A stretch of DNA of 64,000 bases from Polyangiales bacterium (GCA_038231275.1 JBBRLQ010000007.1:96001-160000), one strand, 5' to 3'; numbered from the stretch's first letter, positions 5,454 through 60,705 are shown. Notes: generated by a model not told the origin, from the letters alone. Program-made: numbers and translations.

Positions 5454-5478
5454 GGGACTAGCAAGCGTATCAAGCGCC

Positions 5479-7671: not shown

Positions 7672-7690
7672 GCCTCGGAATGTAGCGCAG

Positions 7691-18070: not shown

Positions 18071-20127
18071 GTCAGGTTGGAGCCGCTGTCGTCGTCGTCG
18101 CTCGTCATCTGCGGGCGGACGGTGAGGCCGCCCGGCTCGATCGACAGCGCGCTGCCTTGCTCGGGCTGCGAGTCGGGCGGCGGCGGGAAGCTCGACGTGC
18201 TCGTGCCGAGCGCGTTCTTGTGATCGAGGAAGCGCAGCGTGCCGGGGCCGCTCGTGCGCTCCAGCACCCCGCGGAGATCGCCAGGGAGAGGAGCTTCCAC
18301 GATCAGGCGGTGGCCGTGCCCCGGGTGATCGATCTCGATGCGCACGCAGTGGAGGAAGGCGCGGTCGAGGCCGTTCTTCTCTTCGAAGAAGCGGTTGGTC
18401 GGGCCGTGGCCGTACCGATCGTCGCCCAACACCGGGTGGCCGATCGCGGCGAGGTGGCGGCGGACCTGATGGGTCCTACCTTGCTCGGGGATGACGCGCA
18501 GCACGCTGTGACCGCTCGCGACCGCGAGGCGCCGGTAGCGCGTGCGCGCGGGGAACAGCTTCCCCTCCTCGCGCAGCTCGCGGGTGATGGCGCCCTTCGA
18601 CGGCGTGACGCCGCGCGCGGCGGCGACGTAGATCCTGCGCGAGGCGGCGGAGGCGAGCGCAGCGGCCCATTTGGCGACGAGCTCGGGCTGCCGCGCGAAG
18701 ATCACGAGCCCGCTCGTTCCGATGTCGATGCGGTGGATGGGGACCGCATCGGCGGCCCCGGGGAGACGCCGCACGCGCGACTGGAGAGAGCTCGCGTACT
18801 CCGCCTGCGGCGCCGTCGGTTCGTGCGGGCCCTTCTCGACGATCAAGATCTCTTCGTCCTCGAAGGCGACGCGCGGCGTGGGGATCGAGCCGCGCCGGAG
18901 GATGGCGACCGTCTCCACCTCGTCGGTGAGCGGGATCATGTCGAGCGGCCGCAGCGACGCCGTGGAGTACCCGAGGCGCGAGAGGTGATCGAGATCGCGC
19001 GCGAGCGTGTCGGGATCGCAGGAGACGTACGCGAGCGCGGTGAGCTCGAAGCGCGCGATCCACTCGCGCGCCAGCGCGCTCATTCCGCGGCGTGGTGGGT
19101 TCACGACGGCGGCGTCGAACTTCTCGCCGCGCTCGAGCATTGCGCGCAGCGCCGTCGCCGCGTCGGCGTGATCGGCGGTGAGCCGGACGTCTTGCGATCG
19201 GGCTGCGGCGCGCGCCTGCTCGACCGCCGGACCGAACGACTCGACGAGGTGCACGTCGGCCCCGGCCGCGCCCAGCGCCAACGCGATCGCGCCGCTCCCG
19301 CCGTACAGATCGAGGACGCGCACGCGCTTGCCGTGCAGGACCGCCTTCGCCACGCCCGTGAGCTCGATCAGCATCTGGTGGATGCGCTCGGCCTGCCCGC
19401 GGTGGGCTTGCACGAAGGAGCCGAACGTCGCGAGGTGAATCGACGCGCCGAGCTTGTCGGGGAGCGACGCCTCGCCGAAGAGATGAGACGTCTCGCTGCC
19501 GAGGATCTGCGGCGCCTCGCCGTCGTGGAAGTTGACCGCCACGCCCGCGATCTCCGGCATCTCGCCGATGAGCGCCTGCGCGGCGGCTTTCAGCGCCGCC
19601 AAATCTGGGACGCGCGCGCGGTGGACGACGAGCGTGACGAGCACGCGCGCGCCGTCGTCGCCTCGGACCTCACGAAGGTCCACGGCACGCAGCGCGCCGC
19701 CCCCGCTCGGATCGAACGGCGCGAGCAGTCCATCGCCCGCCGTCGTCGTCCGCGCGCGGAGCGACTCGGCGACGCGCGCGAGGACGGGGGAGAGGACCCG
19801 GCACGTCGGAATGTCGACGACCTGATGACCGCCGCCCTTCGCGAAGAGCCCGACCCTCGGTCCCGACGCGACGATGAGCTTCGCGCGCGTGCGGTAGCCG
19901 ACGATTGGCGACGCGGCCGCGACGGGCTCGGTGTACACGAGCTCGAGGGACGAGTAGCGCGCGACGGATTGAACGACGCGACCGCGCTTGAGCGCGAGCT
20001 GCTCTCCGTACGGGAGCGCGATGATCGGACATCCACCGCAGCGGTCGGCGTGCGAACACTCGACACGCTGGGTGTCCAGTGGCGCAGGCGGACCGAGCTC
20101 GGGCGCGGGGACCATCGGTAGGCTCAT
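18067..20127 (-). CDS. fusion of an RNA m5U methyltransferase (RlmC/RlmD family) and an RluA-family pseudouridine synthase
   Basis: CSHADRCGGC, DLYGGSG, VNPPRRG, YVSCDPDTLARD; then HRIDIGTSG, GRTHQVRRHL, GHPVLGDDRYG in one frame. Confidence 0.9.
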   Translation of the reverse strand: MSLPMVPAPELGPPAPLDTQRVECSHADRCGGCPIIALPYGEQLALKRGRVVQSVARYSSLELVYTEPVAAASPIVGYRTRAKLIVASGPRVGLFAKGGGHQVVDIPTCRVLSPVLARVAESLRARTTTAGDGLLAPFDPSGGGALRAVDLREVRGDDGARVLVTLVVHRARVPDLAALKAAAQALIGEMPEIAGVAVNFHDGEAPQILGSETSHLFGEASLPDKLGASIHLATFGSFVQAHRGQAERIHQMLIELTGVAKAVLHGKRVRVLDLYGGSGAIALALGAAGADVHLVESFGPAVEQARAAARSQDVRLTADHADAATALRAMLERGEKFDAAVVNPPRRGMSALAREWIARFELTALAYVSCDPDTLARDLDHLSRLGYSTASLRPLDMIPLTDEVETVAILRRGSIPTPRVAFEDEEILIVEKGPHEPTAPQAEYASSLQSRVRRLPGAADAVPIHRIDIGTSGLVIFARQPELVAKWAAALASAASRRIYVAAARGVTPSKGAITRELREEGKLFPARTRYRRLAVASGHSVLRVIPEQGRTHQVRRHLAAIGHPVLGDDRYGHGPTNRFFEEKNGLDRAFLHCVRIEIDHPGHGHRLIVEAPLPGDLRGVLERTSGPGTLRFLDHKNALGTSTSSFPPPPDSQPEQGSALSIEPGGLTVRPQMTSDDDDSGSNLT

Positions 20128-20207
20128 CGTATACCTTCGTCGCCTCGGACGAAGAAAGCGTACGCGCATCCCCACACGAACCTACCCGACGAACGTGTTT
20201 GGCGAGG

Positions 20208-21710
20208 ATGGCGCGCGGGCGATACTCTGAAGCAGTGTCGGAGGCCGTGCCCAGAATCGGACTCCCGTCTCCGGGAGACGTGATCGACGAGAAATACCGG
20301 ATCATCCGGTCGATCGGCGAGGGCGGCATGGGGCACGTGTTCGAGGCCGCGCACCTGCGGATGGGACAACGCGTCGCCATCAAGGTCCTGAAGCCCGCCG
20401 CCAGCCAGGCTCCCGAGGTCCTCTCGCGGTTCGATCGCGAGGCCCGCGCGGCGGGGCGCCTTCGCGGGGCTCACAGCGCGCGCGTCATCGACGTCGACAT
20501 CACGCCCGATCACCTGCCGTACATGGTCATGGAATACCTCGACGGGCACGATCTCCAGACGGAGCTCGAGCAGCGTCAGGTGTTCCCGGTCCTCGAGGCG
20601 ATCGACTACGTGCTGCAGGCGTGCGCCGGAATGGCCGAGGCCCACGACATCGGCATTGTGCACCGCGACCTCAAGCCGTCGAACCTCTTTTTGTGCGACG
20701 ACGGGGACCGGCGCATCGTCAAGATCCTCGATTTCGGGATCTCCAAGATCCTCGACGAGGCCTCGAAGCTCACCTCGACCGAGCTGACCGTCGGGACGCC
20801 GCTCTACATGTCGCCCGAGCAGGTTCGGTCGGCGCGCACCGTCGACGCGCGGACCGACATCTGGGCCCTCAGCATCATCCTGTTCGAGCTCTTGACGGGC
20901 AGGCCGCCCTGGGTCGGCAGCGGGCCGTCGGTGGCCGCCGCGATCGTGACCGATCCTCCTCCGCCGCTCTCCGAGTTTCGAGGAGACATTCCGCCAGGGC
21001 TCGAAGCCGTGCTCGTGAAGGCGCTCGCCAAGTCCGCCGGTGAGCGGTACCTCGACGTGTGCTCGTTCGCCGACGCGCTCCTGCCGTACTGCGCGAGCCC
21101 CACCAGCCTCGGCCGCGCGTCGCTGGAGAGCGCGCGTCGCGCCGCGCAGAGCGGGGTGTCGCTGATCAGGATCGGCAACCGATCGCCGGAGCTCGCGAAC
21201 GCTCCGACCGTGCTGAGCATGCCGAACGGCGGGGTCGCGGAGGTGTCTTCGGTGCCCGCGAGCGTTTCCGAGCGGAAAGCGGCCGTCACGACCGCCGGAT
21301 GGACGACGGGTTCTGGGCGGCGCTCGGCCCAGCGCACGCGCCTCCTCTTCGGCACCGCGCTCCTCGTCGCGGTCTCCGCCGTGGCCGTCGCGGTCTCCGT
21401 TGTCGTGCTCGCTCGGAAAGCTCCGCGGCTCTCGGCGACGGCGGAAGCTTCGAGCCTCGCGGCCGTACTGCCGCCGCCGCAGCCGATCGCCGAGCCGCCG
21501 CCGCTCGCGTCGTCCTCGCTGCCCATCGCGCTCGCGTTGCCCGCGCCCGTGCCGTCGGGTCCATCGTCCGCGAAGCCTGGTGTGGGAACGACGCGGCCGG
21601 TTCGACCCCCGCCCACGCGCGCGCCGACAGGGATCGCGTCGAGCCCTCCTCCGGTCCTGTATCCGCCCCCGTCGACGTCGCAGAAGCCCCCTCCGCTCTA
21701 CATGCCGTGA
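20208..21710 (+). CDS. membrane-anchored Ser/Thr protein kinase
   Basis: GEGGMG, VAIK, HRDLKPSN, DFG, GTPLYMSPEQ; TM segment and Pro-rich tail; start uncertain (20208 or 20235). Confidence 0.93.
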   Translation: MARGRYSEAVSEAVPRIGLPSPGDVIDEKYRIIRSIGEGGMGHVFEAAHLRMGQRVAIKVLKPAASQAPEVLSRFDREARAAGRLRGAHSARVIDVDITPDHLPYMVMEYLDGHDLQTELEQRQVFPVLEAIDYVLQACAGMAEAHDIGIVHRDLKPSNLFLCDDGDRRIVKILDFGISKILDEASKLTSTELTVGTPLYMSPEQVRSARTVDARTDIWALSIILFELLTGRPPWVGSGPSVAAAIVTDPPPPLSEFRGDIPPGLEAVLVKALAKSAGERYLDVCSFADALLPYCASPTSLGRASLESARRAAQSGVSLIRIGNRSPELANAPTVLSMPNGGVAEVSSVPASVSERKAAVTTAGWTTGSGRRSAQRTRLLFGTALLVAVSAVAVAVSVVVLARKAPRLSATAEASSLAAVLPPPQPIAEPPPLASSSLPIALALPAPVPSGPSSAKPGVGTTRPVRPPPTRAPTGIASSPPPVLYPPPSTSQKPPPLYMP

Positions 21711-27841: not shown

Positions 27842-29338
27842 ATGGCCGAACCTCCGCTGCGCATCGTCATGGTCTCGGCCGAGATGGAGTCGCTCGCACG
27901 CACGGGCGGGCTCGGGGACGTCGTTCAGGCGGTGAGCGCTCACGTCGCGCGCCTCGGCGATCACGTCCTCGTCGTCACGCCGCTCTACGCGGTCACCAAG
28001 GTCCCGCCGGGCTGCACGCGTTGGCCGGATACCGTCCCCGTTCGCGTCGGGTGGGGACCGAGCGACGTGCGCGAGGTCGGCGTCCTCGAGCTTCCTCGCG
28101 CCGAGGCGGGTAGGCTGCGCGTCTGCCTCCTCGACGATCCGGCGCTCTTCGCGCGCGCGGGCCTGTACGGCGACGGGCAGGGTCCGTTCGGCGACAACGA
28201 TCTCCGCTTCGCCACCCTCTCGCGCGGCGCGCTCGGGATCGCGGCGCGCGCCTGGGGCACGGAGCCCGACATCGTGCACGCGCACGACTGGCACGCCGCG
28301 CTCGCGGTCATCTACGCGCGTCTGACGATGGGCGAAGCGTGGTCGCGCGTGAAGAGCGTCGTGACCATCCACAACCTCGGCTTCCAAGGCGCGCTCGGCG
28401 AGGACGCGCTCGACAGGCTCTCCATTCCGCGCGAGGCGTTCACCTCGGGCGCGCTCGATCATTTCGGCGCCGTGAACCTGATGAAGGGCGCGATCGCGTA
28501 CGCCGATTGCGTCACCGCCGTGAGCCCGACGTACGCGCGGGAGATCCAGACGGTAGAGGGTGGCTTCGGCCTCGACGGGTTCTTGCGGGATCACGCGACC
28601 AAGCTCGTCGGCATCCTGAACGGCATCGACGCCGAGCGCTTCGATCCGGCGACCGACTCCGCCCTCGCCGAACGCTACGATGCGGCGAGCCTCGAGCACG
28701 GCCGCGCGACCTGCAAGCGCGCGCTCTCGTTGGAGCTCGGCCTGAACGGCGGCGTGGGCGATCCGCTCTTCTCCACGGTGACGCGCCTGACCTGGCAGAA
28801 GGGGATCGATCTCTTTCTCGACGTCGTCCCGCTGCTCGTCGAACGCGGCGCGCGCGTCGTCATCGTGGGTCAGGGCGATCCCGACCTCGAAGGGCGCGTC
28901 CTCGCGATCGCCGCGCGTCATCCAGGCCGCGTCGCCGCGCGCATCGCCTTCGATCCCGCGCTCGCACGAAGGACGTACGCGGGCAGCGACTTTTTCGTCG
29001 TTCCTTCCCGCTACGAGCCGTGCGGCCTCACGCAGCTGTACGCGATGCGCTACGGGGCAGTGCCGCTGGTGACCGCGGTGGGGGGGCTCAAAGACACGGT
29101 CGTGCCGGTGCGCGCCGCGCAAAGCGAGGGGACGGGCATCGTCGCGTCGCACGCGTCCTCGACCGAGCTCGTGTTCGCAGTCGAGGACGCGCTCACGCTG
29201 TACGGCGATCCGCTGGCGATGCGCGAGCTGCGGCGTCGCGCGATGGCGCGTGACAGCTCGTGGACGACGTCCGCCGCCGCCTACGTCGCCCTCTACCGCG
29301 ACGTCGTCGATCGCTCTACGCCGCGCGCGTCGACTTGA
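27842..29338 (+). CDS. glgA: glycogen synthase (GT5)
   Basis: RTGGLGDV, HAHDWH, TIHNLGFQG, RLTWQKG, PSRYEPCGLTQL. Confidence 0.93.
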   Translation: MAEPPLRIVMVSAEMESLARTGGLGDVVQAVSAHVARLGDHVLVVTPLYAVTKVPPGCTRWPDTVPVRVGWGPSDVREVGVLELPRAEAGRLRVCLLDDPALFARAGLYGDGQGPFGDNDLRFATLSRGALGIAARAWGTEPDIVHAHDWHAALAVIYARLTMGEAWSRVKSVVTIHNLGFQGALGEDALDRLSIPREAFTSGALDHFGAVNLMKGAIAYADCVTAVSPTYAREIQTVEGGFGLDGFLRDHATKLVGILNGIDAERFDPATDSALAERYDAASLEHGRATCKRALSLELGLNGGVGDPLFSTVTRLTWQKGIDLFLDVVPLLVERGARVVIVGQGDPDLEGRVLAIAARHPGRVAARIAFDPALARRTYAGSDFFVVPSRYEPCGLTQLYAMRYGAVPLVTAVGGLKDTVVPVRAAQSEGTGIVASHASSTELVFAVEDALTLYGDPLAMRELRRRAMARDSSWTTSAAAYVALYRDVVDRSTPRAST

Positions 29339-30437
29339 TCGAGTCGACGCGAATGACGATGACGGTCACGTTGTCGAGTCCGCCGTTGGCGTTGGCCGCG
29401 GCGATGAGCAACTCGACTGCTTTTTTGGGCGGATTGTCGCGAAGGACCGCGCCGACGCTCTCGTCGGAGACCATCTTCGAGAGCCCGTCCGAGCAGAGGA
29501 GGTACGTGTCCCCAGGGAGCGGCTTGCCGAGCACGACGTCGATCGATACGCGCGGCCAGACCCCCACGGCGCGGCTCAGATGCGTCGCCGACGCGCCGCC
29601 GACGCCGAGGTCCTTCATCGTGTGATCGGCGGTCATCTGCCTGAGCATCCCGCCGCGCAAACGATAAACGCGGCTGTCGCCGACGTGCGCCAGGTAGAGG
29701 CGCTGCTTGTTGGGGGAGAAGCGCGCCGCGCACACCGTCGTTCCCATCCCGGACAGCGCGCGGTCCTGCTGCGCGTGACGGTAGATGTTCTCGTTCGCCA
29801 GCTGAACGGCGCGCGCGAGCTCGCGGGCGCGCTTCGGGATCTCGCCGGCATCCTTCTCCGTGAAGGTGTGCTCTTGGAACGCCTTCGCGATCGTCTCCAC
29901 GGCGAGCTTGCTCGCGACGGCGCCGCCGGTGTAGCCGCCCATACCGTCGGCGACGACGAAGAGGTTCGCGTCCTCGAGGACCAGCAAGCTGTCCTCGTTG
30001 CGCTTGCGGCGCCGGCCCGCATCCGTCTGCCCCGTCGCGCTGACCAGGATGAGCGCGCCCGCCTGCGTGGGCTCCTCGGGCTCGGCGTCCGTGTCGTAAA
30101 CGATCTTCGTCGTCGTCGCCGAGGCTCCTGGCGGCAGCCGTGCGCCTTCGCCGACGACCGTGCCGTCGGCCTCGGCGTCCTCGTCGTATTCGATGCGCGG
30201 CAGGCCCGGACCGGTGAGCGCGCGGATGTCCGACTTCAGCGGCACCTCGCCCTCCGAATCCGATGGCTCCGGCGCCACGCTGCGCGCGTCCCGCGGATTT
30301 GCCGGCGCAACGGGGAGGCCGGGCCTCGAGGGGGAACCATCGCGGCTTGCGCTCGAAAATAGACGAGCCACGACGAGGAGCGCCAAGAGGGCACCCACTA
30401 CGATCGCGACCAGCGTTTCAAACGGCACAGCGCTCAT
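29316..30437 (-). CDS. PP2C-family phosphatase with N-terminal TM anchor
   Basis: TM segment, acidic linker, NEDS, VADGMGG, HVGDSR, LCSDGL, GGLDN. Confidence 0.92.
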   Translation of the reverse strand: MSAVPFETLVAIVVGALLALLVVARLFSSASRDGSPSRPGLPVAPANPRDARSVAPEPSDSEGEVPLKSDIRALTGPGLPRIEYDEDAEADGTVVGEGARLPPGASATTTKIVYDTDAEPEEPTQAGALILVSATGQTDAGRRRKRNEDSLLVLEDANLFVVADGMGGYTGGAVASKLAVETIAKAFQEHTFTEKDAGEIPKRARELARAVQLANENIYRHAQQDRALSGMGTTVCAARFSPNKQRLYLAHVGDSRVYRLRGGMLRQMTADHTMKDLGVGGASATHLSRAVGVWPRVSIDVVLGKPLPGDTYLLCSDGLSKMVSDESVGAVLRDNPPKKAVELLIAAANANGGLDNVTVIVIRVDSIKSTRAA

Positions 30438-30754
30438 TCCGACCAAGAGCTCATGAGTGGCAACAACCAAAAGCACGCACCTGTGGACGGGGCCGCCACA
30501 AGCGTCTCAATCGGCTCAACGAAGCAACCCTCGTGCCTCGCTGAGGTTTCGGTGGGTTGGGTTGCAAAAACCGTTGCGTGGGGTGCGACACAGGGATCGC
30601 CGGTCCACACGTGCGAGGCGCCGCGTTCGGTCGGACCTCGGCGACGTGGCTCCCCCGCACCGCTCGAGACCAAGCATCGCCGCAGAACCTACGGGCTTTC
30701 TTGGTGGTCGCCAAGAATTTCACGTACCCTGAGGTGGGGTTTGCGCTGCCGCTC

Positions 30755-31458: not shown

Positions 31459-32871
31459 TCAGAGCTCGTGCTTGCGAATCAGCCGGTAGATGTACGTGCG
31501 ATCGATGCCCGCCTTCTTCGCGGCGGCCGACACGTTGCGGTTGTGACGCATGAGGAGCTGCCGGACGTACTCTTTTTCGCCGGCGTCGATCCACGACTCC
31601 CGGAAGTCCTTGTAGGCGAGCTCGAACATGTGCGGATCGTCGATGGCGAGCGACGAGCCCGTCGCCTGCGGAAGCGGCGGAGGGATCGACGCCGAGGGCT
31701 GCGGTGGGCTCATCGACGGAGGCGGGCCCCCGTCACGAAGCGCAGCCGCCTCGCGTGCGGTGCCCGCCATCGCGAGCGCCTCGGCGGCCCCGAGGGCCCT
31801 CAGGCGATCGATGAAGTTTCGAAGCTCGCGAACGTTGCCGCGCCACGGGCGCGCGACGAGCTCGCGGATCACGTCGGAGCTGAGGTGGCTGCTCCCCGCG
31901 GTCTGTCGCAAGAAGTGGTTCGCGAGCAGCTCGATGTCCTCGCGACGCTCGCGGAGAGGCGGCACCGACACCGGGAGCACCGAGATGCGGAAGTAGAGGT
32001 CCTCGCGGAACTCGCCGACGTTGACCATCGTGAGGAGATCGCGGTGCGTCGCCGAGACGAAGCGCACGTCGATGGTGCGGTACGTCGTCTCGCCGATTCG
32101 ACGGACCGTGCGCGACTCGAGGACGCGCAGGAGCTTGGGCTGCATGGAGATCGGCATCTCGCCGATCTCGTCGAGGAACACGGTGCCGCCGTCCGCCGAC
32201 TCGATCGCGCCGGCGCGGGCGCCGACCGCACCGGTGAATGCGCCCTTGGCGTGGCCGAAGAGCTCCGCGTCGAGCAGGTTCTCCGGGAGCGCCGCGCAGT
32301 CGACGACGACGAAAGGCTTCGTCGCGCGAGGCGACGCGTCGTGGATGGCGCGGGCGACGAGCTCCTTGCCGGTCCCGGTTTCTCCCTGGATGAACACCGA
32401 GGTGTCCATGGGCGCGACCTTGGCGAGGCGTGCGAAGAGCTCGCGCATTGGTGTGCTGCGTCCGACGAGCTTCTCGAAGATGTCGTGCGGCCACAGATCG
32501 ACCGGGCGCTTGGCCGCCGCGTTGTAGTCGACGAGGAAATCCGTGGAACCGAGGCGCACCCGCGCTCCCTGCGGGACGAGCGCGCCGGTCACCTGGAGGC
32601 CTTCGACGAACGTCCCGTTGCGGCTCCCCAGATCGCGCACCCAGAGGCCGTCCTCGCGCGCCTCGAACTCGGCGTGGAGGCGTGACACCGTCGGGTCCTG
32701 CACGACGAGGCCGCTTCCGGGCGCCGAGCCAACGACGACAGGGCCTTCGATGAGGCGCCCCTGTCGGCCACTGGCGTCCGTCCACTCGACCCTCGGCCGG
32801 CTGCGAAACTGCGGGGCGAACGCGGCTTGGTTCAGCTGCGTCTCCTCGGGCGGCGGCTCGGAGTAAGGCAT
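31459..32871 (-). CDS. FHA-domain sigma54 enhancer-binding protein
   Basis: FHA (VSRLHA, DLGSRNGT), GETGTGKE, GAFTGA, FLDEIGE, WRGNVREL, C-terminal HTH. Confidence 0.95.
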   Translation of the reverse strand: MPYSEPPPEETQLNQAAFAPQFRSRPRVEWTDASGRQGRLIEGPVVVGSAPGSGLVVQDPTVSRLHAEFEAREDGLWVRDLGSRNGTFVEGLQVTGALVPQGARVRLGSTDFLVDYNAAAKRPVDLWPHDIFEKLVGRSTPMRELFARLAKVAPMDTSVFIQGETGTGKELVARAIHDASPRATKPFVVVDCAALPENLLDAELFGHAKGAFTGAVGARAGAIESADGGTVFLDEIGEMPISMQPKLLRVLESRTVRRIGETTYRTIDVRFVSATHRDLLTMVNVGEFREDLYFRISVLPVSVPPLRERREDIELLANHFLRQTAGSSHLSSDVIRELVARPWRGNVRELRNFIDRLRALGAAEALAMAGTAREAAALRDGGPPPSMSPPQPSASIPPPLPQATGSSLAIDDPHMFELAYKDFRESWIDAGEKEYVRQLLMRHNRNVSAAAKKAGIDRTYIYRLIRKHEL

Positions 32872-33002
32872 TGGGCCACCCAGTATACCGTCTCTGCCCT
32901 GTCCACAACGGAGTGTCGGCGTGATGCCCCGCAGACGACAGGTTCCCTCGTTGGTGGCCGTGGGGTCCACGCTCCGTCACGCCCCTTCCACGAGTTCAGC
33001 AG

Positions 33003-33018: not shown

Positions 33019-33029
33019 CAGTGGTTGAC

Positions 33030-33677
33030 ATGGTGCCCACCAAGCCCTTCGCCAAGGCCGCGGGACCCCGCTTCGCCCAGCTGGGCACGGTAAGAGTGCT
33101 AGACGTCGCCGACGCGAGCCGTACGGCGGCGGTCGCATTTCTCGAAGGGACCGCGACCGGATGGGGTCGAGCGGAGCTGGCCGCGTGGCTCACGGGCGCC
33201 TACCGCGCCTCGACCACGCGCAACCCGACCGCGCTCGCGGGCGCAGGCAACGGCGACACGACGATCTCCGACGGCACCGTGGAGCGCGTCCTCTTGCGCA
33301 CGCGCGAGCGCCTCATCGACCTCTTGGCAGGCGGCGCGTGCGAGTGGAGCAAGGCGGGATTCACGACGCACGCCGTCGAAGCAGGGCTCGTCGTTGGCGT
33401 CACCGACGAGAGCGGCGCGCTGGGGTATGCCCCGCTCGATCTGCCCGGGATGCGCCTCTACGATCGCGTGTCCGCGCTGTTCGTCGCCGACTACCTCACG
33501 CGTCCTCGCGACTACGAGGGGCTCTCGCTCTGCGAAGAGTGCTCGGAGCTCTCGTTTTCTTGGGCGCCGTCTCACCACCGCCACTGCTCCACTCCTCCCG
33601 TGGTCAGCGGGGTCGTCGCACGTCACACGGGGCTCGTCGCACCGATCACGAGCAGGGGCCTGGGAGACGACAGCTAG
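33030..33677 (+). CDS. hypothetical protein with possible C-terminal zinc site
   Basis: LCEECSELSF...HHRHC; sits directly behind the sigma54 promoter. Confidence 0.65.
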   Translation: MVPTKPFAKAAGPRFAQLGTVRVLDVADASRTAAVAFLEGTATGWGRAELAAWLTGAYRASTTRNPTALAGAGNGDTTISDGTVERVLLRTRERLIDLLAGGACEWSKAGFTTHAVEAGLVVGVTDESGALGYAPLDLPGMRLYDRVSALFVADYLTRPRDYEGLSLCEECSELSFSWAPSHHRHCSTPPVVSGVVARHTGLVAPITSRGLGDDS

Positions 33678-33702: not shown

Positions 33703-34443
33703 ATGAGGCGCTCCATCCCCGAGGACTCGGTCGACGTGTGGGCAGTTCGGCCGGCGACCGTCGAGCCGGCGTACATCGCGGCGTACCGCGGGCTCCTGAC
33801 TCCGGACGAGGAGGCCCGCGCCGCGCGCTATCGGTTCGACGAGCACCGACGCGAGTATCTGGTGACGCGCGCCCTCGTTCGAACGACGCTTTCCCGCTAC
33901 CGCGACGTCGCGCCGAAGGACTGGCGCTTCACTGCGAACGCCTACGGGAGGCCCTCGACGTCTCCGGCGTGTGGTCTCGAGTTCAATCTGTCGAACACTC
34001 TCTCGCTCGTTGTCTGCGCAGTCTCCGAGCATCGCGAGCTCGGCATCGACGTGGAGCCGCTGGCTCGCGCGAAGGACATTCTCGAGGTCGCCGAGACCGT
34101 CTTCACCGACGTCGAGCGCGCCGAGCTGCGCGCCCTCGACGCCGCGGGCGCGGCCGACCGTGCGGTCTCGTTGTGGACGCTGAAAGAGGCGTACATGAAG
34201 GCGCGGGGAATGGGGATGAGCCTGCCGCCGAAGGAGATCTCGCTGGGGTTTCCGAGCGGTGGAGCGCCGTCCATCGAGGTCGCCGCCCAGTACGCGGACG
34301 GTCGCACGTGGTCGCTTCGTACCGTAGACGTGGACGGACATCGCCTAGCGTTGGCCGTAGCAGCGCCGAGCTCCGTGGAGCTCCTGACGACGGTACAGAT
34401 TGTGATTCCAGAATTGTTCGAAGGAGGACCTCGTGAATCGTGA
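33703..34443 (+). CDS. Sfp-type 4'-phosphopantetheinyl transferase
   Basis: NAYGRP, FNLSNT, LGIDVE, WTLKEAYMKARGMG. Confidence 0.93.
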   Translation: MRRSIPEDSVDVWAVRPATVEPAYIAAYRGLLTPDEEARAARYRFDEHRREYLVTRALVRTTLSRYRDVAPKDWRFTANAYGRPSTSPACGLEFNLSNTLSLVVCAVSEHRELGIDVEPLARAKDILEVAETVFTDVERAELRALDAAGAADRAVSLWTLKEAYMKARGMGMSLPPKEISLGFPSGGAPSIEVAAQYADGRTWSLRTVDVDGHRLALAVAAPSSVELLTTVQIVIPELFEGGPRES

Positions 34444-34495
34444 ATGCCGCAGCTCGGTCGGTCTCTTGGCCCACGTTTCGCAGGTACGCGGCCCG

Positions 34496-35221
34496 ATGAA
34501 TCGACGTGCGACGACGCTGTTGCCGATACTGACCGTCCTTGCCCTCGGGTGCGGAGGAGCGAGGCCCGCGGGCTCTCGGGCTCAGGCCGATGCCGCGCTG
34601 CCCGAGGCGCTGACGTGCGACGGTGCGCTGCCTCCTGGCGAACGCATCGCCATGGAGCCGGGCGGGACGGAGGCGAGGCGGCAAGTGACGCAACCCATGA
34701 GCGCGGGCGGTGCAGAGGGCCTACGCATGTTCAAGCAGCAGCGGTGGGACGCGTCCATTCCCTTCCTGCGAAACGCTGCGGGTGGGCGAGGTGGTGACGA
34801 TCGCGCGAACCGCGATCTGTCGCAATTCCGCCTCGGGGTCGCGCTCCTCTTCACCGGCCAGGACAGCGAGGCGAAGGCGCTGCTCGGCGTCATCGCGCGC
34901 GACCCGGCGAACGCCGCACGACCGGAGATGCTTGTCTGGCTCGCGGATACGTCCGTCGTCCACCCGGGCCTGGCCCACTACTTCGGCGCGTTCGACGACG
35001 CCGACGTGGCCGCCATCGAAGGACCCGAGGCGCAGAGATCCAAGGTCAATTACATGATTGGACGGCAGCGGTTCGAACAGAAGACCTTCGCCGACGCGAT
35101 GTTCTTCTTCTCTCAGGTGAAGCCGCCGAGCACGTTCACGCGCCACGCGCAGCGCTGCGTCGCCAAGATCGATGCGAACACCAATGCGGCGAGAGGCGCC
35201 ACGCCCCAGGCCGCGCGCTGA
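34496..35221 (+). CDS. lipoprotein with TPR-like helices
   Basis: Lipobox LALGC; helical repeats. Confidence 0.6.
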   Translation: MNRRATTLLPILTVLALGCGGARPAGSRAQADAALPEALTCDGALPPGERIAMEPGGTEARRQVTQPMSAGGAEGLRMFKQQRWDASIPFLRNAAGGRGGDDRANRDLSQFRLGVALLFTGQDSEAKALLGVIARDPANAARPEMLVWLADTSVVHPGLAHYFGAFDDADVAAIEGPEAQRSKVNYMIGRQRFEQKTFADAMFFFSQVKPPSTFTRHAQRCVAKIDANTNAARGATPQAAR

Positions 35222-35228
35222 AGCGCCG

Positions 35229-36254
35229 TCATATCTGAGAGGGCGAGGTCACGCGGACGAGGATTGCCGTGATGTTGTCGAGGCCACCCTTCTCGTTCGC
35301 GACGGCGATCAGCCGCTCGACCGCCGCCTCCGGGTTCTTCTCCGCGACGAGCACTTTCGCGATTCCTTCACTCGATACCATCTTGCTCAGGCCGTCGGAG
35401 CAAAGGAGGTAGACGTCGTCGGGCAGCGGCTTCGCGAAGATGATGTCGATCGGCACGAGCGGCCAGACCCCGATGGCGCGCGAGAGATGTCCACCCTCGG
35501 GGCCCGTGATTCCGTGCTGCTTCATGGTGTGGTCGGTGGTCATCCGCTTCAAGACGCCGTCGCGTAGTCGGTAGGCGCGGCTGTCGCCGACGTGACCGAG
35601 GTAGAGGCGCTGCTTGTTCGGCGAGAAACGGGCGGCAGTGAGCGTCGTCCCCATCCCGCTGAGCGCTTTGTCGCGGCTAGCTCTGGCCAGCACGGCGGCG
35701 TTGGCCATTTGCATCGCCCGCGCGAGCTCCGACGCCCGCCGCGGAAGGTTGTCGTGAGGGGCGCCGTCGAACTTCTGCTCGGCGAGCGCGCGTCCGATCG
35801 TCTCCACCGCGAGCTTGCTCGCGATCTCGCCGCCGCGGTAACCGCCCATGCCGTCGGCGACGACGAAGGTGGAGTTCGCGTCGTCGATGAGCAAGCTGTC
35901 CTCGTTCGCCTTCCGGCGCTTGCCCTTGTCCGTCTGCGCCTTCGCGGAGACGAGGATGAGCGCCGAGGCTTGCGTCGGCTCGTCGGTCGCGGCGTCGTCG
36001 TCGTAGACGATCGCGGTCGTCGGGGGCTGCTGCACGCCCTGCGTGACGTCGGAGCCGACCTTGGTGGGATCGATGCTCGCGTCCTCTTCGTAGTCGATGC
36101 GCGGCAGATCGCCGAGCGTGGGACGGCGTTCCCCCTGGGGGCCGAGCTTCGGCGCGGCAGGAGAGGCGGCCTCCTCGGGAGGCGCGGTGAAATAGGCGAC
36201 CACGAGCGCGATGGTGAAGCCCGCGCCGAGCAGGACCCAAAGCCAGCTGTTCAC
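35229..36254 (-). CDS. PP2C-family phosphatase with N-terminal TM anchor (paralog of 29316..30437)
   Basis: NEDS, VADGMGG, HVGDSR, LCSDGL, GGLDN; GTG start overlaps the MbtH-like stop (GTGA). Confidence 0.92.
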
Positions 36255-36496
36255 GGCGCCGAGGTGCCCTTGTCCTTCGCCTCTTGCTCGGCCATCCACT
36301 TGCGAAGGCTCAGCGGACGCATGTCCGTCCAGACCTCGCCGATGTGCTTCAGGCACTCCGCCTTCGGTCCGCTCTTGCCGTCCGTTCGCCACCCCGCGGG
36401 CACGTCGCGATCGGCGAGCCAGATCGAGTATTGCTCCTCGTCGTTGATCACGACGATGTATGCGCGCGTGTCCTCTTCTTCGTCGGCGGGGGGCAT
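36251..36496 (-). CDS. MbtH-like protein
   Basis: [34 protein letters not shown]; alternative start at 36538. Confidence 0.95.
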
Positions 36497-36556
36497 GAGG
36501 CGAGAGTAGCCGATTTCGAAGGCACTTTGGTTCTCCATGGGGGTAGCTTCAACTTC

Positions 36557-37357
36557 GTGAGGCTCCTCGCCATCAGCGACACACACCTGCGCTCGCCGGG
36601 GAACCGAGCCTTCGTGGAAGGTCTGCCGCCGCAGCCCGACGACTGGCTCATCCTCGGCGGAGACGTCTGCGAACGTGAGGAAGATCTCGCGTTCGTGCTC
36701 GACACCCTCGGCCCGAAATTCGCGAAGCTCATTTGGATCCCGGGAAATCACGAGCTCTGGACGGTCCCGCAAGGGGGACTACGGGGTGTGCAGAGGTACG
36801 AACGCTTCGTCGCGATCTGCCGCGCGCGCGGCGTGTTGACGCCCGAGGACCCCTATCCCTCGTGGCCCGGCGATGGGCCGCCGACCGTCATCGCGCCGCT
36901 TTTCCTCCTCTACGACTACTCGTTTCGACCGGACGAGGTGAGCCGCGAGGGGGCCATCGACTGGGCGATGGAGCATGATCTGCTCTGCGCCGACGAGAAG
37001 CTCCTTCATCCCGATCCGTACGCGACGCGTGACGCGTGGTGCGAGGCCCGCTGCGCGTCGACCGAGGAGAGGCTCGCCGCGCTCGGGTCCGATGTGCAGA
37101 CCGTCCTCGTGAACCATTTCCCGCTTCGTCGCGCGCACGCGCGGTTGCCGCTCATCCCGCGCTTCTCGATTTGGTGCGGCACGCGGCGCACCGAAGAGTG
37201 GCACCTTCGTTTTCGCGCGCGCGCCGTCGTCTACGGCCACCTCCACATCCGTCGTACGCACGTCGAGGACGGGGTGCGGTTCGAGGAGGTCTCGTTGGGC
37301 TACTCCGGTCAGTGGTCCGGCGATCCGTCGCGGTACCTCCGCGTCGTCCTCGAGTGA
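36557..37357 (+). CDS. calcineurin-like metallophosphoesterase, PptH (phosphopantetheine hydrolase)-like
   Basis: [66 protein letters not shown]. Confidence 0.88.
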
Positions 37358-37376
37358 CCGGACTTCCGCGCGCGCT

Positions 37377-38609
37377 TCAACGTCTCGGGCGGCGAGAGCG
37401 TCCGGCGGGGAGGCTGGCCGCCGAGTCCACGAAGATGGGGAGGTTCACATCGGTCTCCGCTTCCGTGGGCGATTGCGCGCGGACTCCGCGGCCCTTCGCA
37501 AATTGCGTCCCGCGCGCGATCCCTTCCGCGCGGATCTTCGCCCAGCACTCGAGCAGCGCTTGCCGGAACGCCGCGGCATTCGCGTACCTCCGGATGCGCT
37601 GCTTCGCGAGCGCGTGCCCGATGACCTGCTCGAGCTCTTGTGGGACGTCGTCGCGCGAGATGCGGATGCTCTCCGGCTCGCGCAGCGCGATCGACGCGAT
37701 GAGCGTGTGGTAGTTCGGCGCGTCGAAGGCGCGGTGGCCGGCAAGCATCTCGTAGAGGACGAGCCCCGACGCCCAGACGTCCGCGCGCTCGTCGAGGTTC
37801 TTCGGGGCGTCGAGCTGCTCGGGCGATAGGTAGTGCGGCGTTCCGGGGATCACGCCGGTCTCGGTGATGGAGCTGAGATCCTCGGGCTGGCTCATGCGCA
37901 TCCACGTCGGGAGGAGCTTCGCCAGACCGAAGTCGATGAGCTTCGCGATCGGCGCTTGCCCGCGCGGGCTGATCAGGAACACGTTGCTCGGCTTCACGTC
38001 GCGATGGAGCACGCCGCGCGCGTGGGCGGCCGAAAGTCCATCGAGCAGCTGGAGTGCCACGGAGATCGCGTCGCCGAGTGCCATCGGCCCTTCTTCGTAG
38101 AGGCGCGAGCGCAGCGTCTCTCCGTGGAGCCGCTCCATCACGATGTACGGCGATCCGTCCTTCACCGTGCCGCTGCCGAAGACTTGGCAGACGTTGGGAT
38201 GACGGAGCGCGTGCGCGGCGCGACGCTCGCGTCGAAACCTCCGGAGGTTCTCCGAGTTGAACGCCGACGGGTGCAGGACCTTCAGCGCGATCTCCTGCCC
38301 ACTGTCGACGTCGACCGCCGAGAAGACCACGCCCATCCCGCCCGCACCGATGACGCTCGCGATGCGGAAGCGACCCTCGACGAGCTGCCCGATCAGACCG
38401 TCGGCGGCCGTCTTGCGCGCCTGGAGCACATGCCCGCTCGATCGAAGCTGGTTCGGCGCGAGCGACGAGTCCCGATCGCGCGTCTCGGCGTCCTGTGGGG
38501 TGCGGCGTCGGGGGGGATTGGGAATCACGAGATCGTGCGGCCGACGGGTGCTCGCCGGGCCATCCTCGTGGAGCGGAGGACGTCGGGGAGGGGGAAAGCG
38601 CCGCACCAT
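37377..38609 (-). CDS. soluble Ser/Thr protein kinase
   Basis: GAGGMG, IALK, HRDVKPSN, DFG, GTPHYLSPEQ; no TM segment; start uncertain. Confidence 0.9.
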   Translation of the reverse strand: MVRRFPPPRRPPLHEDGPASTRRPHDLVIPNPPRRRTPQDAETRDRDSSLAPNQLRSSGHVLQARKTAADGLIGQLVEGRFRIASVIGAGGMGVVFSAVDVDSGQEIALKVLHPSAFNSENLRRFRRERRAAHALRHPNVCQVFGSGTVKDGSPYIVMERLHGETLRSRLYEEGPMALGDAISVALQLLDGLSAAHARGVLHRDVKPSNVFLISPRGQAPIAKLIDFGLAKLLPTWMRMSQPEDLSSITETGVIPGTPHYLSPEQLDAPKNLDERADVWASGLVLYEMLAGHRAFDAPNYHTLIASIALREPESIRISRDDVPQELEQVIGHALAKQRIRRYANAAAFRQALLECWAKIRAEGIARGTQFAKGRGVRAQSPTEAETDVNLPIFVDSAASLPAGRSRRPRR

Positions 38610-38808
38610 CTCGCTAAGCATGCACCATGCCCATGCCAAACGACCAGATTCCGTGGGCTCTTGGTGGCCCGTGGTGACGGTGTGGATGGCCAGGCTTCGG
38701 GCGTGTCGACGTGGACGCGACGGTAGGCGCGAGAGCTGCTTTGTGGGTGTTCGTGCGCGGTGAACACGAGCGACCACTTGCGGTACGGTGATTGGACCGA
38801 TCACCCGC

Positions 38809-39561
38809 ATGCCTCGGCCCACCGATCTAGCTTCACGCGTTCCCTTCCGTCTGCCCCGTCCGTCGGCCAATGTTCGTCTTTTTTGTCTCCCGTTCGCCGG
38901 CGGCGGCGCCGTCAACTACCGCGGGTGGGAGCGGTCGTTGCCCGAGTCGATCGAGGTGTGCCCGGTCGAGCTCCCAGGTCGTGGAACGCGTTTTCGCGAG
39001 GCTCCTCTGGCGGCGATGGGGGCGCTCGTCGACGACCTCCTCGCCGGCCTCGCGCCGCTCTTCGATCGCCCGGTGGCGTTCTTCGGCCACAGCATGGGCG
39101 CTCGCATCGCGCTCGAGCTCGCGCGGCGTCACGGCGACGACGTCGTGCATCTCTTCGCGTCCGGCGCGCCGGCTCCGCACCTCGATCGGCCCTCGGTCGG
39201 GCGGTCGTGGACGAGGTTGTCCAACGCGGAGCTCGTGGAGCAGCTGCGCGCCTGGGGAGGCACGCCGCCGGCAATCATCGACAACGCCGAGCTGATGGAG
39301 CTCGCGCTTCCCGTTCTGAGGAGCGACCTCTCCCTCATCGAGACGTACGAGGGCACCGTCGAACCTCCGCTCGCGTGCGACCTGACGGCCTTCGCCGGGA
39401 TCGATGATCACGAAGTGCCGGTCCGTGACGTCGGCGCGTGGGCGAACTACACGCGCGCGTCGTTCTCCCTGGTCGAGGTAGAAGGCGATCACTTCTTCGT
39501 GAACGACGCGCGCGGTCGCGAGACGATCTTCCGCGCCATCGTGCGTTCGCTGGTACCTTGA
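38809..39561 (+). CDS. type II thioesterase (RifR/GrsT-like)
   Basis: LFCLPFAGG, VELPGRG, FFGHSMG, LPVLRSD, GDHFF. Confidence 0.92.
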   Translation: MPRPTDLASRVPFRLPRPSANVRLFCLPFAGGGAVNYRGWERSLPESIEVCPVELPGRGTRFREAPLAAMGALVDDLLAGLAPLFDRPVAFFGHSMGARIALELARRHGDDVVHLFASGAPAPHLDRPSVGRSWTRLSNAELVEQLRAWGGTPPAIIDNAELMELALPVLRSDLSLIETYEGTVEPPLACDLTAFAGIDDHEVPVRDVGAWANYTRASFSLVEVEGDHFFVNDARGRETIFRAIVRSLVP

Positions 39562-39568
39562 CCGAACG

Positions 39569-40414
39569 ATGAAGGCACACCTCTTCGCGTCGATCGCCGC
39601 AGCGTGCGCTGTCGGGTGCGGCGCCTCCCAGGTCAAGGTCATCGGCGCGGAAGGTCCCGAGTACTCCGCGACGCAGCGCGCCGACCCCAACCTCCGCGGG
39701 CACGCGCACAACGACAGCACGATCGAGCTCCCGAGCGACGAGCAGATCGTCGAGCCCGCGCATCCCGCCGTCGGCACGCCGCAAGAGCGCGCGCTCGTCC
39801 ACATCCACACGCCGAAAGCGGTCTGCTCGGGCGTCGTGATCGGCCCGCGCCTCATCCTCACCGCCCACCAGTGTGTCGCTCCCGAGGCGCGCGCGGCCGC
39901 GGCGGTCGTCGGCTTGCACCGCGTCGAGGTCGCGTCGAGCACGCTGACGTGGACCAACCGCGAGGCGTCGCACTTCGTGGTGCCCGCATGCGAGTGGTCG
40001 AAGCTCGATCTTGCGGTGATGATCCTGAAGGAGCCCGTCGAGTGGGTCCAGCCGCTCAAGGTCACCTCGGCCCCTGGTCCTGGCGGCGGCGTCCAGGCGC
40101 TCGGCTTCGGCAAGTGCGTCGGCGAGACGCGCGGCGTGCACGAGCGTATCGGCGCGGTGCTGAGCAGCGAGCCCGACGCAGTCATCATCGATGTCCCCTT
40201 GTGCCGTGGCGACGTTGGCGGCCCGGTCGTCGAGCGCGCCGCAGGAGATCTCGTCGGCGTCATTTCGCACCAGGACGATCCCGACGGCTCGCCCCGCCGA
40301 ACCACCACGATCGTGCGCTTCGACACGGTCGCCACCCGCGCGCTCGTCGATCAAGCCGCGGCGATCCTCAAGGGCGGCGATCCCGCGAAGCTCACGCCGC
40401 TCGCCTGCGAATGA
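39569..40414 (+). CDS. trypsin-like (S1) lipoprotein, catalytically degenerate
   Basis: CSGVVIGPRLILTAHQC, DLAV, CRGDVGGP. Confidence 0.8.
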   Translation: MKAHLFASIAAACAVGCGASQVKVIGAEGPEYSATQRADPNLRGHAHNDSTIELPSDEQIVEPAHPAVGTPQERALVHIHTPKAVCSGVVIGPRLILTAHQCVAPEARAAAAVVGLHRVEVASSTLTWTNREASHFVVPACEWSKLDLAVMILKEPVEWVQPLKVTSAPGPGGGVQALGFGKCVGETRGVHERIGAVLSSEPDAVIIDVPLCRGDVGGPVVERAAGDLVGVISHQDDPDGSPRRTTTIVRFDTVATRALVDQAAAILKGGDPAKLTPLACE

Positions 40415-40444
40415 CCGCGCGTCGGCGTGGTAGAGTCCGCGCCC

Positions 40445-41845
40445 ATGAGCGCCACGTCCGTTCGTGAAATCCTCCGCGGCTCACTCCCCGCCGGCAGCAA
40501 GGTCAAGGTCCAGGGCTGGGTCCGCACCCGCCGCGACTCGAAGGCGGGCCTGTCGTTCGTCCACGTCAGCGACGGCTCGTGCTTCGATCCGATCCAGGTC
40601 GTCGCGCCGAGCGCCCTCCCCAACTACGTCAGCGAGGTCCTCAAAATCACCGCGGGCTGCGCGGTCGAGGTCGAGGGCGAGGTCGTGGCCTCGCAAGGCC
40701 AAGGCCAGAAGCTCGAGGTGAGCGCCGCATCGGTGCGCGTCGTCGGTTGGGTCGAAGATCCCGAGAAGTATCCGATCCAACCCAAGCCCCACAGCCTCGA
40801 GTTCCTGCGAGAGGTGGCGCACCTCCGGCCGCGCACCAACACGTTCGGCGCCGTGTCCCGTGTCCGTCACACGATGGCGCAGGCGATGCACCGCTTCTTC
40901 GATCAGCAGGGCTTCGTCTGGGTGAACACGCCCATCGTGACGACCAGCGACGCCGAGGGCGCCGGCCACATGTTCCGCGTCAGCACGCTCGACGCGCTCA
41001 ACATGCCCAAGGGACCCGACGGCCAGATCGACTACGCGCAGGATTTTTTCGGCAAGCCCGCCTTCCTCACAGTGAGCGGCCAGCTCAACGTCGAGTCCTA
41101 CTGCCTCGCGCTCTCCAAGGTCTACACGTTCGGTCCCACGTTCCGCGCCGAGAACTCCAACACGACCCGCCACCTCGCGGAGTTCTGGATGGTCGAGCCC
41201 GAGATCGCTTTCGCGGATCTCACCGCCAACGCCGATCTCGCCGAGGCCTTCCTCAAGCACGTCGTGAAGGCGGTCCTCACCGAGCGCCCCGACGACATGA
41301 AGTTCTTCGTCGACCGCATCGAGAAGACGGCCATCTCCCGCCTCGAGAAGCTCGTCGACGTCCAGTTCGAGCGCATCGACTACGGCGAAGCGGTGAAGCT
41401 CCTCGAGGCGTCGAAGAAAAAATTCGAGTTCCCCATCAAATGGGGCAGCGACCTCCAGACCGAGCACGAGCGGTACCTCACCGAGGAGAAGATCGGCCGC
41501 CCCGTCGTGGTCATGAACTACCCCGAGCAGATCAAGGCGTTCTACATGCGCCTGAACGACGACGAGAAGACCGTCGCGGCGATGGACATCCTCGCGCCCG
41601 GCATCGGCGAGATCATTGGCGGCTCGCAGCGCGAGGAGCGGCTCGATCACCTCGAGCGGCGCATGGAGAAGCTCAAGCTCGAGAAGAAGCACTACGAGTG
41701 GTACCTCGATCTTCGCCGCTACGGCACCGTCCCGCACGCGGGCTTCGGCCTCGGTTTCGAGCGGATGCTCGTGTACATCACCGGCCTCGGAAACATCCGC
41801 GACGCGATCCCGTACCCGCGCGCCCCAAAGACGGCGGAGTACTGA
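40445..41845 (+). CDS. asnS: asparagine--tRNA ligase
   Basis: [51 protein letters not shown]. Confidence 0.98.
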
Positions 41846-48565: not shown

Positions 48566-50221
<1,656 letters not shown>

Positions 50222-50246
50222 GGATGCCGGTCGGTGTAGCACGAGC

Positions 50247-60415: not shown

Positions 60416-60703
60416 ATGATGAACAAGGAACAGGGCAAGAAGGCGTTCGACGCGTGGGAGAACACCAGCGCGGCGTACATCGAGAAGTGGATGAAGAGCC
60501 CGCTCGTCCTCGCGCCGGTGGGCGCGCTCCTGACGCAGGCCATGCGCCTCAAAGAAGCGCACGAGAAGGTGATGACCTCGATGTGGTCGGCGTTGGGCCT
60601 GTCCACGAGGCGGGATCAGGAGCGGACCCTTTTTGCGCTGCACAAATTGGAGAGCCGCCTGATGGACCTCGAAGAGAAGCTCGACAAGAGGAACGGGGGT
60701 TGA
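60416..60703 (+). CDS. mini PhaE-like PHA synthase partner subunit
   Basis: 95 aa; [10 protein letters not shown]...LHKLESRL resembles the PhaE C-terminal L-x-L-P-T-R coiled-coil motif; in the phaC operon. Confidence 0.6.
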
Positions 60704-60705
60704 GG

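Follow-up and report, generated by a model that had tools for sequence, protein, structure and literature searches.

Why should a bacterium keep genes for loading, stripping and proofreading carrier proteins, together with a gene for an MbtH-like protein, at a place where no synthase lies? The question is raised by a stretch of 64,000 nucleotides from a Polyangiales bacterium (GCA_038231275.1, JBBRLQ010000007.1:96001-160000), hereafter called the window, which in our own numbering of genomes and contigs is G000:C7:96001-160000 and belongs to an assembly of 9.28 Mb (164 contigs, 94% complete). Between positions 33703 and 39561 of the window lie four intact genes, which encode a 4'-phosphopantetheinyl transferase (PPTase), an MbtH-like protein, a metallophosphoesterase of the PptH family and a type II thioesterase (TEII). 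A preliminary description of the window had read these genes as a trans-acting hub for the cell's non-ribosomal peptide synthetases (NRPSs) and polyketide synthases (PKSs). We consider it probable that they form a free-standing carrier-protein service locus, which lies outside any biosynthetic gene cluster (BGC) and whose four products would all act in trans. On the sequences compared here, the conserved evolutionary core of the locus is the writer/eraser pair of PPTase and PptH, which is widespread beyond mycobacteria, and in this genus the MbtH gene and the TEII gene came to lie at the PPTase-PptH locus.

Identity of the four genes

Because the G+C content of the window is about 69%, the reading frames were picked by their third-position GC and then assigned by family searches. 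The identities and coordinates that had been proposed for the four genes were confirmed by matches in Pfam and in the PDB, with the MbtH gene lying on the minus strand. The writer, an Sfp-type PPTase, is encoded at 33703-34443 on the plus strand and has 246 aa when counted from the Met at 33703. It matches the N-terminal domain PF22624 (3.7e-06) and PF01648 (1.2e-17), which occupy residues 134-211 and 216-320 of the long open reading frame (ORF), respectively. The closest solved relative is Sfp (1qr0; 3.4e-20, residues 29-231), and at E <= 1e-5 the solved relatives are Sfp only. The residues G114, D116, E118, W158, K161 and E162 are invariant in 33 PptH-linked PPTases. The two-domain, predicted pseudo-dimeric architecture and a length in the range of about 230-250 aa place the protein with the Sfp-type (family II) PPTases. 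Since it scores 112.7 bits against the NCBIfam HetI equivalog NF042922, which has a cut-off of 370 bits, it is described here as Sfp/HetI-like and not filed as HetI.

The putative eraser, a phosphopantetheinyl hydrolase of 266 aa, is encoded at 36557-37357 on the plus strand. Besides PF00149 (8.5e-13), it matches the chain 6unc_A in a search against all PDB sequences with an E-value of 2.8e-79, residues 3-265 of the query aligning with residues 20-287 of the chain, and the next match has an E-value of 0.18. By a hand count, 134 of 263 residues in this alignment are identical (about 51%). We take 6unc to be PptH (Rv2795c) of Mycobacterium tuberculosis, the protein that had also been named in the preliminary description. 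The resemblance suspected there is thus borne out by the alignment, and the phosphoesterase motifs quoted there are all present in the translation. Passages of PMC8557913 name two PptH variants, C225R, which was expressed, and H246N, which is described as inactive or lacking function. When a constant offset of +3 is applied, the two positions coincide with a Cys and a His in the 6unc chain, and this supports the identification of 6unc as PptH. In the window protein, C207 (within WCGT) aligns with the Cys of C225R and H228 (within GHLH) with the His of H246N. The family motifs SDxH, GD, GNHE, LYDYSF, WC, NHxPL, WCGT, GHLH and EVSLGY are all kept, and the residues of the binuclear-metal motif (D8/H10, D36, N64/H65, H187 and H228/H230) are present and invariant, or nearly so, in 24 diverse family members that were aligned. 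Among these, H228 and H230 do not vary at all and only two lack C207. We file the protein as a member of the PptH family with a predicted enzymatic activity.

The MbtH-like protein (36251-36538, minus strand) has 95 aa from the ATG at 36538, with an alternative ATG at 36495. Its score against PF03621 is 74.7 bits (cut-off 27), and the solved structures closest to it are those of MbtH-like proteins, PA2412 among them, with PDB chains at 1.8e-20. The alignment with 9lco_B spans SIW, GW and VWTDMRP, the usual W-P being replaced by W-L. As a side observation, a CBF_beta region (PF02312) accompanies MbtH in two other genomes, with matches above the cut-off in both. In G020, which represents another genus of the same family, it forms a fusion with the MbtH domain (L103:5603-6220; E 3.7e-10), and in a metagenome-assembled genome (MAG) of the Thermoflexales it lies just downstream of MbtH (L025:4225-4563; E 2e-6). 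The region looks like an unexplained companion of MbtH.

The putative editor (38788-39561, plus strand; 257 aa) is a discrete TEII that matches PF00975 with 4.6e-42 and 145.2 bits (cut-off 26.4). Its closest solved relatives are discrete editing thioesterases, namely RifR (1.4e-37), YbtT and the surfactin TEII, and its translation has the Ser/His catalytic set, with GHSMG and GDHFF. The open frame of 265 aa lies outside any megasynthase frame, and its size fits the roughly 250 aa of a discrete alpha/beta-hydrolase. On the same strand it is followed by a trypsin-like lipoprotein gene and then by the gene of asparaginyl-tRNA synthetase (AsnRS), with gaps of 7 bp and 12 bp in the stretch 38788-41845, an arrangement that suggests co-transcription of the editing thioesterase with a housekeeping aminoacyl-tRNA synthetase.

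Gene inventory and possible client synthases

PptH has one copy in the assembly, and the MbtH-like protein of the window is the sole match to PF03621. Among sequencing runs, one of DNA contained 0.95 of the sequence words that were sampled, and none of RNA was listed. The ACPS family is matched three times, with two domains only in the window PPTase; the other two matches are single-domain and AcpS-sized, one on contig C45 beside pdxJ and one of 146 aa on C26 beside a small acyl carrier protein (ACP). PF00975 is matched above the cut-off three times, twice within frames of 2861 and 1939 aa, and the window thioesterase is the only such match outside megasynthase frames. A genome-wide scan placed condensation domains on C42, C13 and C125, modular ketosynthase (KS) domains on C13 and C2, and carrier-linked adenylation (A) domains on C42 (two), C125, C13 (two), C3 and C16; the 19 PP-binding matches of the assembly all lie outside the window. 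Megasynthases are found on C13, C42, C2 and C125, with further frames bearing A-PCP on C3 and C16, and these other megasynthases of the genome come without an MbtH, a discrete TEII or an Sfp-type PPTase of their own. With single-copy service genes at the locus and the synthases elsewhere, each service function is therefore encoded once and its possible clients are encoded elsewhere, an inventory that fits a trans-acting role. We infer a chance of about (12 kb/9.28 Mb)^3, or about 2e-9, that three single-copy genes fall within 6 kb on either side of a fourth in a genome of 9.28 Mb.

The earlier statement that the 64 kb contain no A, condensation, KS or carrier domain proved nearly right. No condensation domain was found on C7 in the genome-wide scan, and the KS and PP-binding matches on this contig lie only at C7:25166-26181, outside the window. 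The part of the statement that needs amendment concerns one AMP-binding enzyme at 60454-62283 of the window. As this enzyme has an AMP-binding_C_3 tail, carries no carrier domain and lies beside a PhaC-like gene, it looks like an acyl-CoA ligase and not like the A domain of an NRPS.

In the mechanism we propose, the Sfp-type PPTase would move 4'-phosphopantetheine from CoA onto apo carrier domains, the binuclear metallophosphoesterase of the PptH family would hydrolyse the 4'-phosphopantetheine arm off the carriers, the TEII would clear mis-acylated arms and the MbtH-like protein would activate the adenylation domains of NRPSs, with all four proteins acting in trans on megasynthases of other contigs. 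As a speculation, this could amount to a two-tier repair, in which the TEII frees blocked thiols, while PptH and the PPTase together replace those arms that cannot be freed.

Linkage of PptH to PPTases and recurrence of the gene set

Among 41 genomes of relatives, the window's own counted with them, PptH was found in 8; it occurs in 6 of the 24 that belong to the same family and in 1 of the 16 from other families of the order. A sample of the phylum gave PptH in 42 genomes out of 301 and in 31 genera out of 209. A scan with one genome per species gave a PptH relative in at least 598 genomes. The family is compact, forming 175 clusters (50% identity) at E <= 1e-30 among 1.84 billion representatives. 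The counts out of 80 loci given below refer to the best 80 of these at least 598 genomes, taken as named records, and PPTases were detected at them by hidden Markov models iterated on these same loci, in fetched flanks of up to 6 kb. The 80 loci come from Myxococcota, Acidobacteriota, Pseudomonadota, Actinomycetota, Chloroflexota, Planctomycetota and Latescibacterota, with one record labelled Spirochaetota.

A PPTase lies at most 300 bp from PptH in 36 of the 80 loci, which cover about seven phyla, and in three further loci it is found at a greater distance within the fetched flanks. On the strand of PptH, 17 of the 36 adjacent PPTases lie upstream and 11 downstream of it; on the opposite strand, 6 lie downstream and 2 upstream. 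Carriers of the adjacent pair include Sorangium, Polyangium, Streptomyces virginiae and Aurantimonas coralicida (loci L096, L055, L077 and L062). In two genus mates of the window's host the whole block is syntenic with the same gene order. In G020 and G005, which belong to other genera of the same family, the PptH gene immediately precedes that of the PPTase, both on one strand and 12 and 23 bp apart. Of the longer relatives in the database, 34 in number at E <= 1e-20, 18 are predicted to be single proteins that join a PPTase domain to a PptH domain, and eight of these combine a full-length PptH part with at least about 165 positions of the PPTase profile. Such fusions are known from database protein predictions only and not from DNA, and a stop-to-stop frame shared by PptH and PPTase is absent from all 87 stretches that were fetched (the window segment and 86 loci). 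Passages of PMC8557913 state that PptH appears to be limited to mycobacteria. The sequence data do not fit this statement, in that the PptH family and its linkage to PPTases, including the predicted fused forms, extend far beyond mycobacteria.

Some further observations on the family may be added. The predicted fusions (P0271, P0274, P0280-P0285 and others) have 476-556 aa with an Sfp/EntD-type PPTase domain and a full PptH domain that is usually N-terminal, and one cluster of them has 14 member sequences. In other long forms (P0273, P0275, P0298, P0299, P0276, P0278, P0148 and P0137) a predicted PptH is joined to HSP90/HATPase, histidine kinase, MBL-plus-NUDIX, MFS transporter or bacterial PH domains, and these may be real fusions or merged gene calls. 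L021 bears the title Comamonas sp. KCTC 72670. Its PptH has that of Myxococcus vastator as its sister, the end branches measuring about 0.03; the locus has 71% GC and shares with M. vastator the neighbours DUF790, HTH, response regulator and M4 peptidase, and this appears to be a misnamed Myxococcus genome.

The distribution also bears on the question whether the window protein could be a general or cyclic-nucleotide phosphodiesterase, whose place near a PPTase would be unrelated to carrier proteins. Close relatives bear the names 'CpdA', 'metallophosphoesterase' and 'predicted phosphodiesterase' in the databases, which are products of automatic annotation, no NCBIfam model names the window protein, and 41 of the 80 loci are without a nearby PPTase. 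In 12 of the PPTase-less loci that were examined, no recurring alternative partner of PptH was found, the neighbours being as varied as an FAD monooxygenase, a sulfatase with an S51 peptidase, a set of DUF790, HTH, response regulator and M4 peptidase, and SHMT. Against a phosphodiesterase stand the full-length similarity to 6unc_A with the next PDB match far behind, the conserved motifs beyond the generic metallophosphoesterase set, the adjacent PPTase in 36 of the 80 loci and the predicted fusion to a PPTase in 18 of the 34 longer relatives, and we hold this explanation to be very improbable. Since the family has no NCBIfam model and carries the database names mentioned, current annotation misses it.

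Members of all four families are found no more than 6 kb apart in the window, its two genus mates and 2 of the 80 named loci. In L023, a MAG of the Alphaproteobacteria, the genes for TEII, MbtH, PPTase and PptH follow each other head to tail on one strand in a compact arrangement, with no NRPS or PKS within flanks of about 5 kb. In L025, the Thermoflexales MAG, those for MbtH, PptH, TEII and PPTase come right after a KS-AT-KR-ACP PKS. A PptH tree of 86 rows, with L015 and L016 left out as short, keeps the lineages of the window, L023 and L025 apart and places the window in a group with G020, where the PPTase is adjacent. The proteins of L023 and L025 are 34-44% (PPTase), 43% (TEII), 61% (MbtH) and 58-59% (PptH) identical to those of the window. 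Because the lineages separate on the tree and the proteins are only 34-61% identical, one recent transfer does not account for the set, which by these comparisons either came together on more than one occasion or has an old origin followed by frequent loss.

Another reading takes the cluster as what is left of the accessory genes of an NRPS/PKS gene cluster after the loss of its megasynthase genes. In its favour are the position of the set in L025, at the end of a modular PKS, and the fact that PPTase, TEII and MbtH are common accessories of BGCs. For the window, such an origin is difficult to reconcile with four intact ORFs that keep their catalytic motifs, with the lack of any megasynthase fragment within the 64 kb, and with the conservation of the block in three genomes of the genus together with its housekeeping flanks (AsnRS, glycogen synthase, GatB, RRF and methylmalonyl-CoA mutase). 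In addition, the same set is free-standing in L023, and the other megasynthases of the genome have no such accessories of their own. A remnant is therefore, in our judgement, scarcely probable at all.

A further alternative grants a function to the PPTase-PptH pair only and attributes the nearby MbtH and thioesterase genes of this genus to gene-order drift, with no joint role or regulation. It agrees with the finding that only 2 of the 80 other loci have MbtH and TEII in the vicinity of PptH, with G020, where MbtH and TEII are free-standing about 1 kb apart on another contig than the PptH-PPTase pair, with G005, where MbtH sits in an NRPS contig, and with the separate transcription units of the window genes on both strands. 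It sits less well with the gathering of the four families into 6 kb in three separate lineages, in one of them (L023) as a closely packed tandem on one strand, with the single copy of all four in the assembly, and with the inferred chance of such clustering per genome given above. Drift alone appears unlikely to us, although less so than a remnant or a phosphodiesterase.

The trans-acting hub, with its predicted activities, trans action and co-regulation, is plausible and fits the gene inventory. A number of findings nevertheless weigh against it. The four genes occupy both strands and at least four transcription units, with lipoprotein, PP2C and Ser/Thr kinase genes between them. MbtH and TEII are rarely found near PptH, as stated, and the flanks fetched around PptH, up to 6 kb, held no PPTase in 41 of the 80 loci. 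In G007, a member of the family with 39 condensation-domain matches and a PptH, no PPTase adjoins PptH and no MbtH was found. The genus mate G002 has the locus, and no condensation domain was found in it, which is weak evidence because this assembly is 83% complete in 970 contigs. The NRPS modules of the window's own genome are few, consisting of two complete condensation domains and one fragment at a contig edge. The PDB names 6unc only 'Metallophos domain-containing protein', and no open-access paper was found that pairs the code 6UNC with PptH. Finally, the physiological role of PptH is stated to be unknown even in M. tuberculosis in passages of PMC8557913.

What remains of the hub as first proposed is the single-copy inventory, the location of the synthases elsewhere and the recurrence of the set in two unrelated MAGs, whereas the idea of one unit did not survive the interleaved genes on both strands and the rarity of MbtH and TEII at PptH. 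The neighbourhood, the conservation of which had been raised as a check, is conserved as far as the PPTase-PptH pair and the block in the two genus mates are concerned, and outside the genus only rarely with respect to MbtH and TEII. A wider proposal, on which we stand close to even and lean slightly towards doubt, is that PPTase-PptH is a pan-bacterial module (at least 598 species genomes; often adjacent, sometimes fused), which can nucleate a BGC-independent four-gene service operon with MbtH and TEII, that the removal and re-installation of the arm form a general, regulated repair cycle, and that this cycle may be wired to Ser/Thr signalling via MbtH-PP2C in the present lineage.

For the genes next to and between the four, membership of the locus is not claimed. 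A hypothetical protein (33021-33677, plus strand) ends 25 bp upstream of the PPTase, has no match in Pfam or NCBIfam, falls into hypothetical clusters only in the Protein Atlas, which are commonest in Myxococcota, and adjoins the PPTase-PptH pair in the two genus mates only. Downstream of the PPTase lies a putative lipoprotein (34433-35221, plus strand) with a lipobox-like LALGC after an internal Met, which has no Pfam match and is a genus-specific neighbour. It is followed by a Ser/Thr phosphatase of PP2C type that has a hydrophobic segment at its N-terminus (35229-36254, minus strand; PF13672 2.7e-16) and reaches 2.9e-57 with the Stp1/IreP model and stays under the cut-off of that model. The PPTase and PptH genes are in this way separated by 2.1 kb with three other genes, the PPTase coming first. 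At 36251-36254 on the minus strand, the MbtH gene ends in a TGA that forms GTGA together with the overlapping GTG start codon of the PP2C gene, and the same overlap occurs in the genus mate G001 (locus L010, near 9359); in G002 the C-terminus of MbtH is longer than in the window. This suggests that the MbtH-like protein is translationally coupled to the PP2C phosphatase. The ORF of a Ser/Thr protein kinase (37377-38915, minus strand; PF00069 1.2e-43) converges on PptH. Its PF00069 domain begins at ORF residue 185 and the alignment with the genus mate runs from residue 81 on; the true start is probably near 38621.

The hypotheticals, the PP2C, the trypsin-like gene and AsnRS recur beside PptH in genus mates only. 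Ser/Thr kinases occur near PptH in four other loci, which we treat as chance because the kinase density in these genomes is high. The 64 kb themselves hold three kinases, three PP2C phosphatases and one FHA-sigma54 activator, such Ser/Thr signalling genes being found at 29316-30476, 31459-32970, 4164-5651, 10027-10965 and 20079-21710, and one of the PP2Cs is a paralogue of the cluster PP2C (55-62% identical). With signalling genes at this density, chance may account for the kinase or phosphatase genes that adjoin the cluster. The other genes of the window are of housekeeping or regulatory type (URO-D, RRF, glycogen synthase, GatB, PhaR/PhaC-like, kinases and PP2Cs), and two methylmalonyl-CoA mutase-family genes lie 40 kb apart at 5917-7854 (PF01642 3.8e-224) and 48566-50242 (9.3e-219).

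Comparison with known systems

The open-access papers found that name PptH concern only mycobacteria, M. tuberculosis drug work or bacterial PPTase inhibition, and none was found that unites phosphopantetheinyl transferase, myxobacteria, MbtH and type II thioesterase. The nearest known system is the PptH-PptT pair of M. tuberculosis (Rv2795c-Rv2794c), which brings the same two enzyme families together at one locus and whose PptH shares with the window protein the metal-binding motifs and both published mutation sites. In G020 and G005, PptH directly precedes the PPTase on the same strand, which we take to be the mycobacterial order by our reading of the Rv gene numbering. The window differs from the mycobacterial pair in its host, which belongs to a Myxococcota-like Gram-negative lineage, in the 2.1 kb that split the pair and the leading position of the PPTase, in the presence of MbtH and TEII at the locus, and in a PPTase whose solved relatives (E <= 1e-5) are restricted to Sfp. 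Because of the broad distribution of PptH, its tight and sometimes fused linkage to PPTases and the occasional presence of MbtH and TEII, its role becomes testable in producers that are harmless and tractable, among them Streptomyces, Sorangium and Aurantimonas.

AcpH of Escherichia coli, an ACP phosphodiesterase of the HD family, performs an analogous eraser reaction on holo-carrier proteins according to passages of PMC8557913. Fold and family of AcpH are unrelated to those of PptH, and the assembly, 94% complete, contains no match to the AcpH family (PF04336). The MbtH gene of the window recalls MXAN_3118 of Myxococcus xanthus, an orphan MbtH-like protein whose gene lies outside any NRPS cluster and for which PMC7593251, with reference to Esquilin-Lebron 2018, reports interactions with seven NRPSs that other loci encode. 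Like MXAN_3118, the MbtH of the window, the sole copy in its genome, is encoded far from NRPS genes; as a difference, its gene appears translationally coupled to a PP2C gene, and the likeness is one of description that does not imply orthology. The PptH loci of Myxococcus, Corallococcus and Hyalangium have neither MbtH nor a PPTase nearby.

Sets of the same families are also known as accessories inside NRPS/PKS clusters. Excerpts of PMC11411415 describe the proofreading thioesterase MgpI, the PPTase MgpJ and the metallophosphoesterase MgpM, the latter with an 'unclear' role, in the megapolipeptin cluster, and excerpts of bioRxiv 10.1101/2020.09.18.303172 describe a PPTase and a metallophosphoesterase, treated as a tailoring esterase, in the sesbanimide cluster. 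MgpM and the esterase of the sesbanimide cluster may be unrecognised members of the PptH family. In the engineering of natural products, an unrecognised eraser beside a PPTase could limit the level of holo-carriers in native or heterologous hosts. The set of the window resembles such accessory sets in that the same families occur together, as they do at the PKS-adjacent locus L025, and differs from them in standing free among housekeeping genes.

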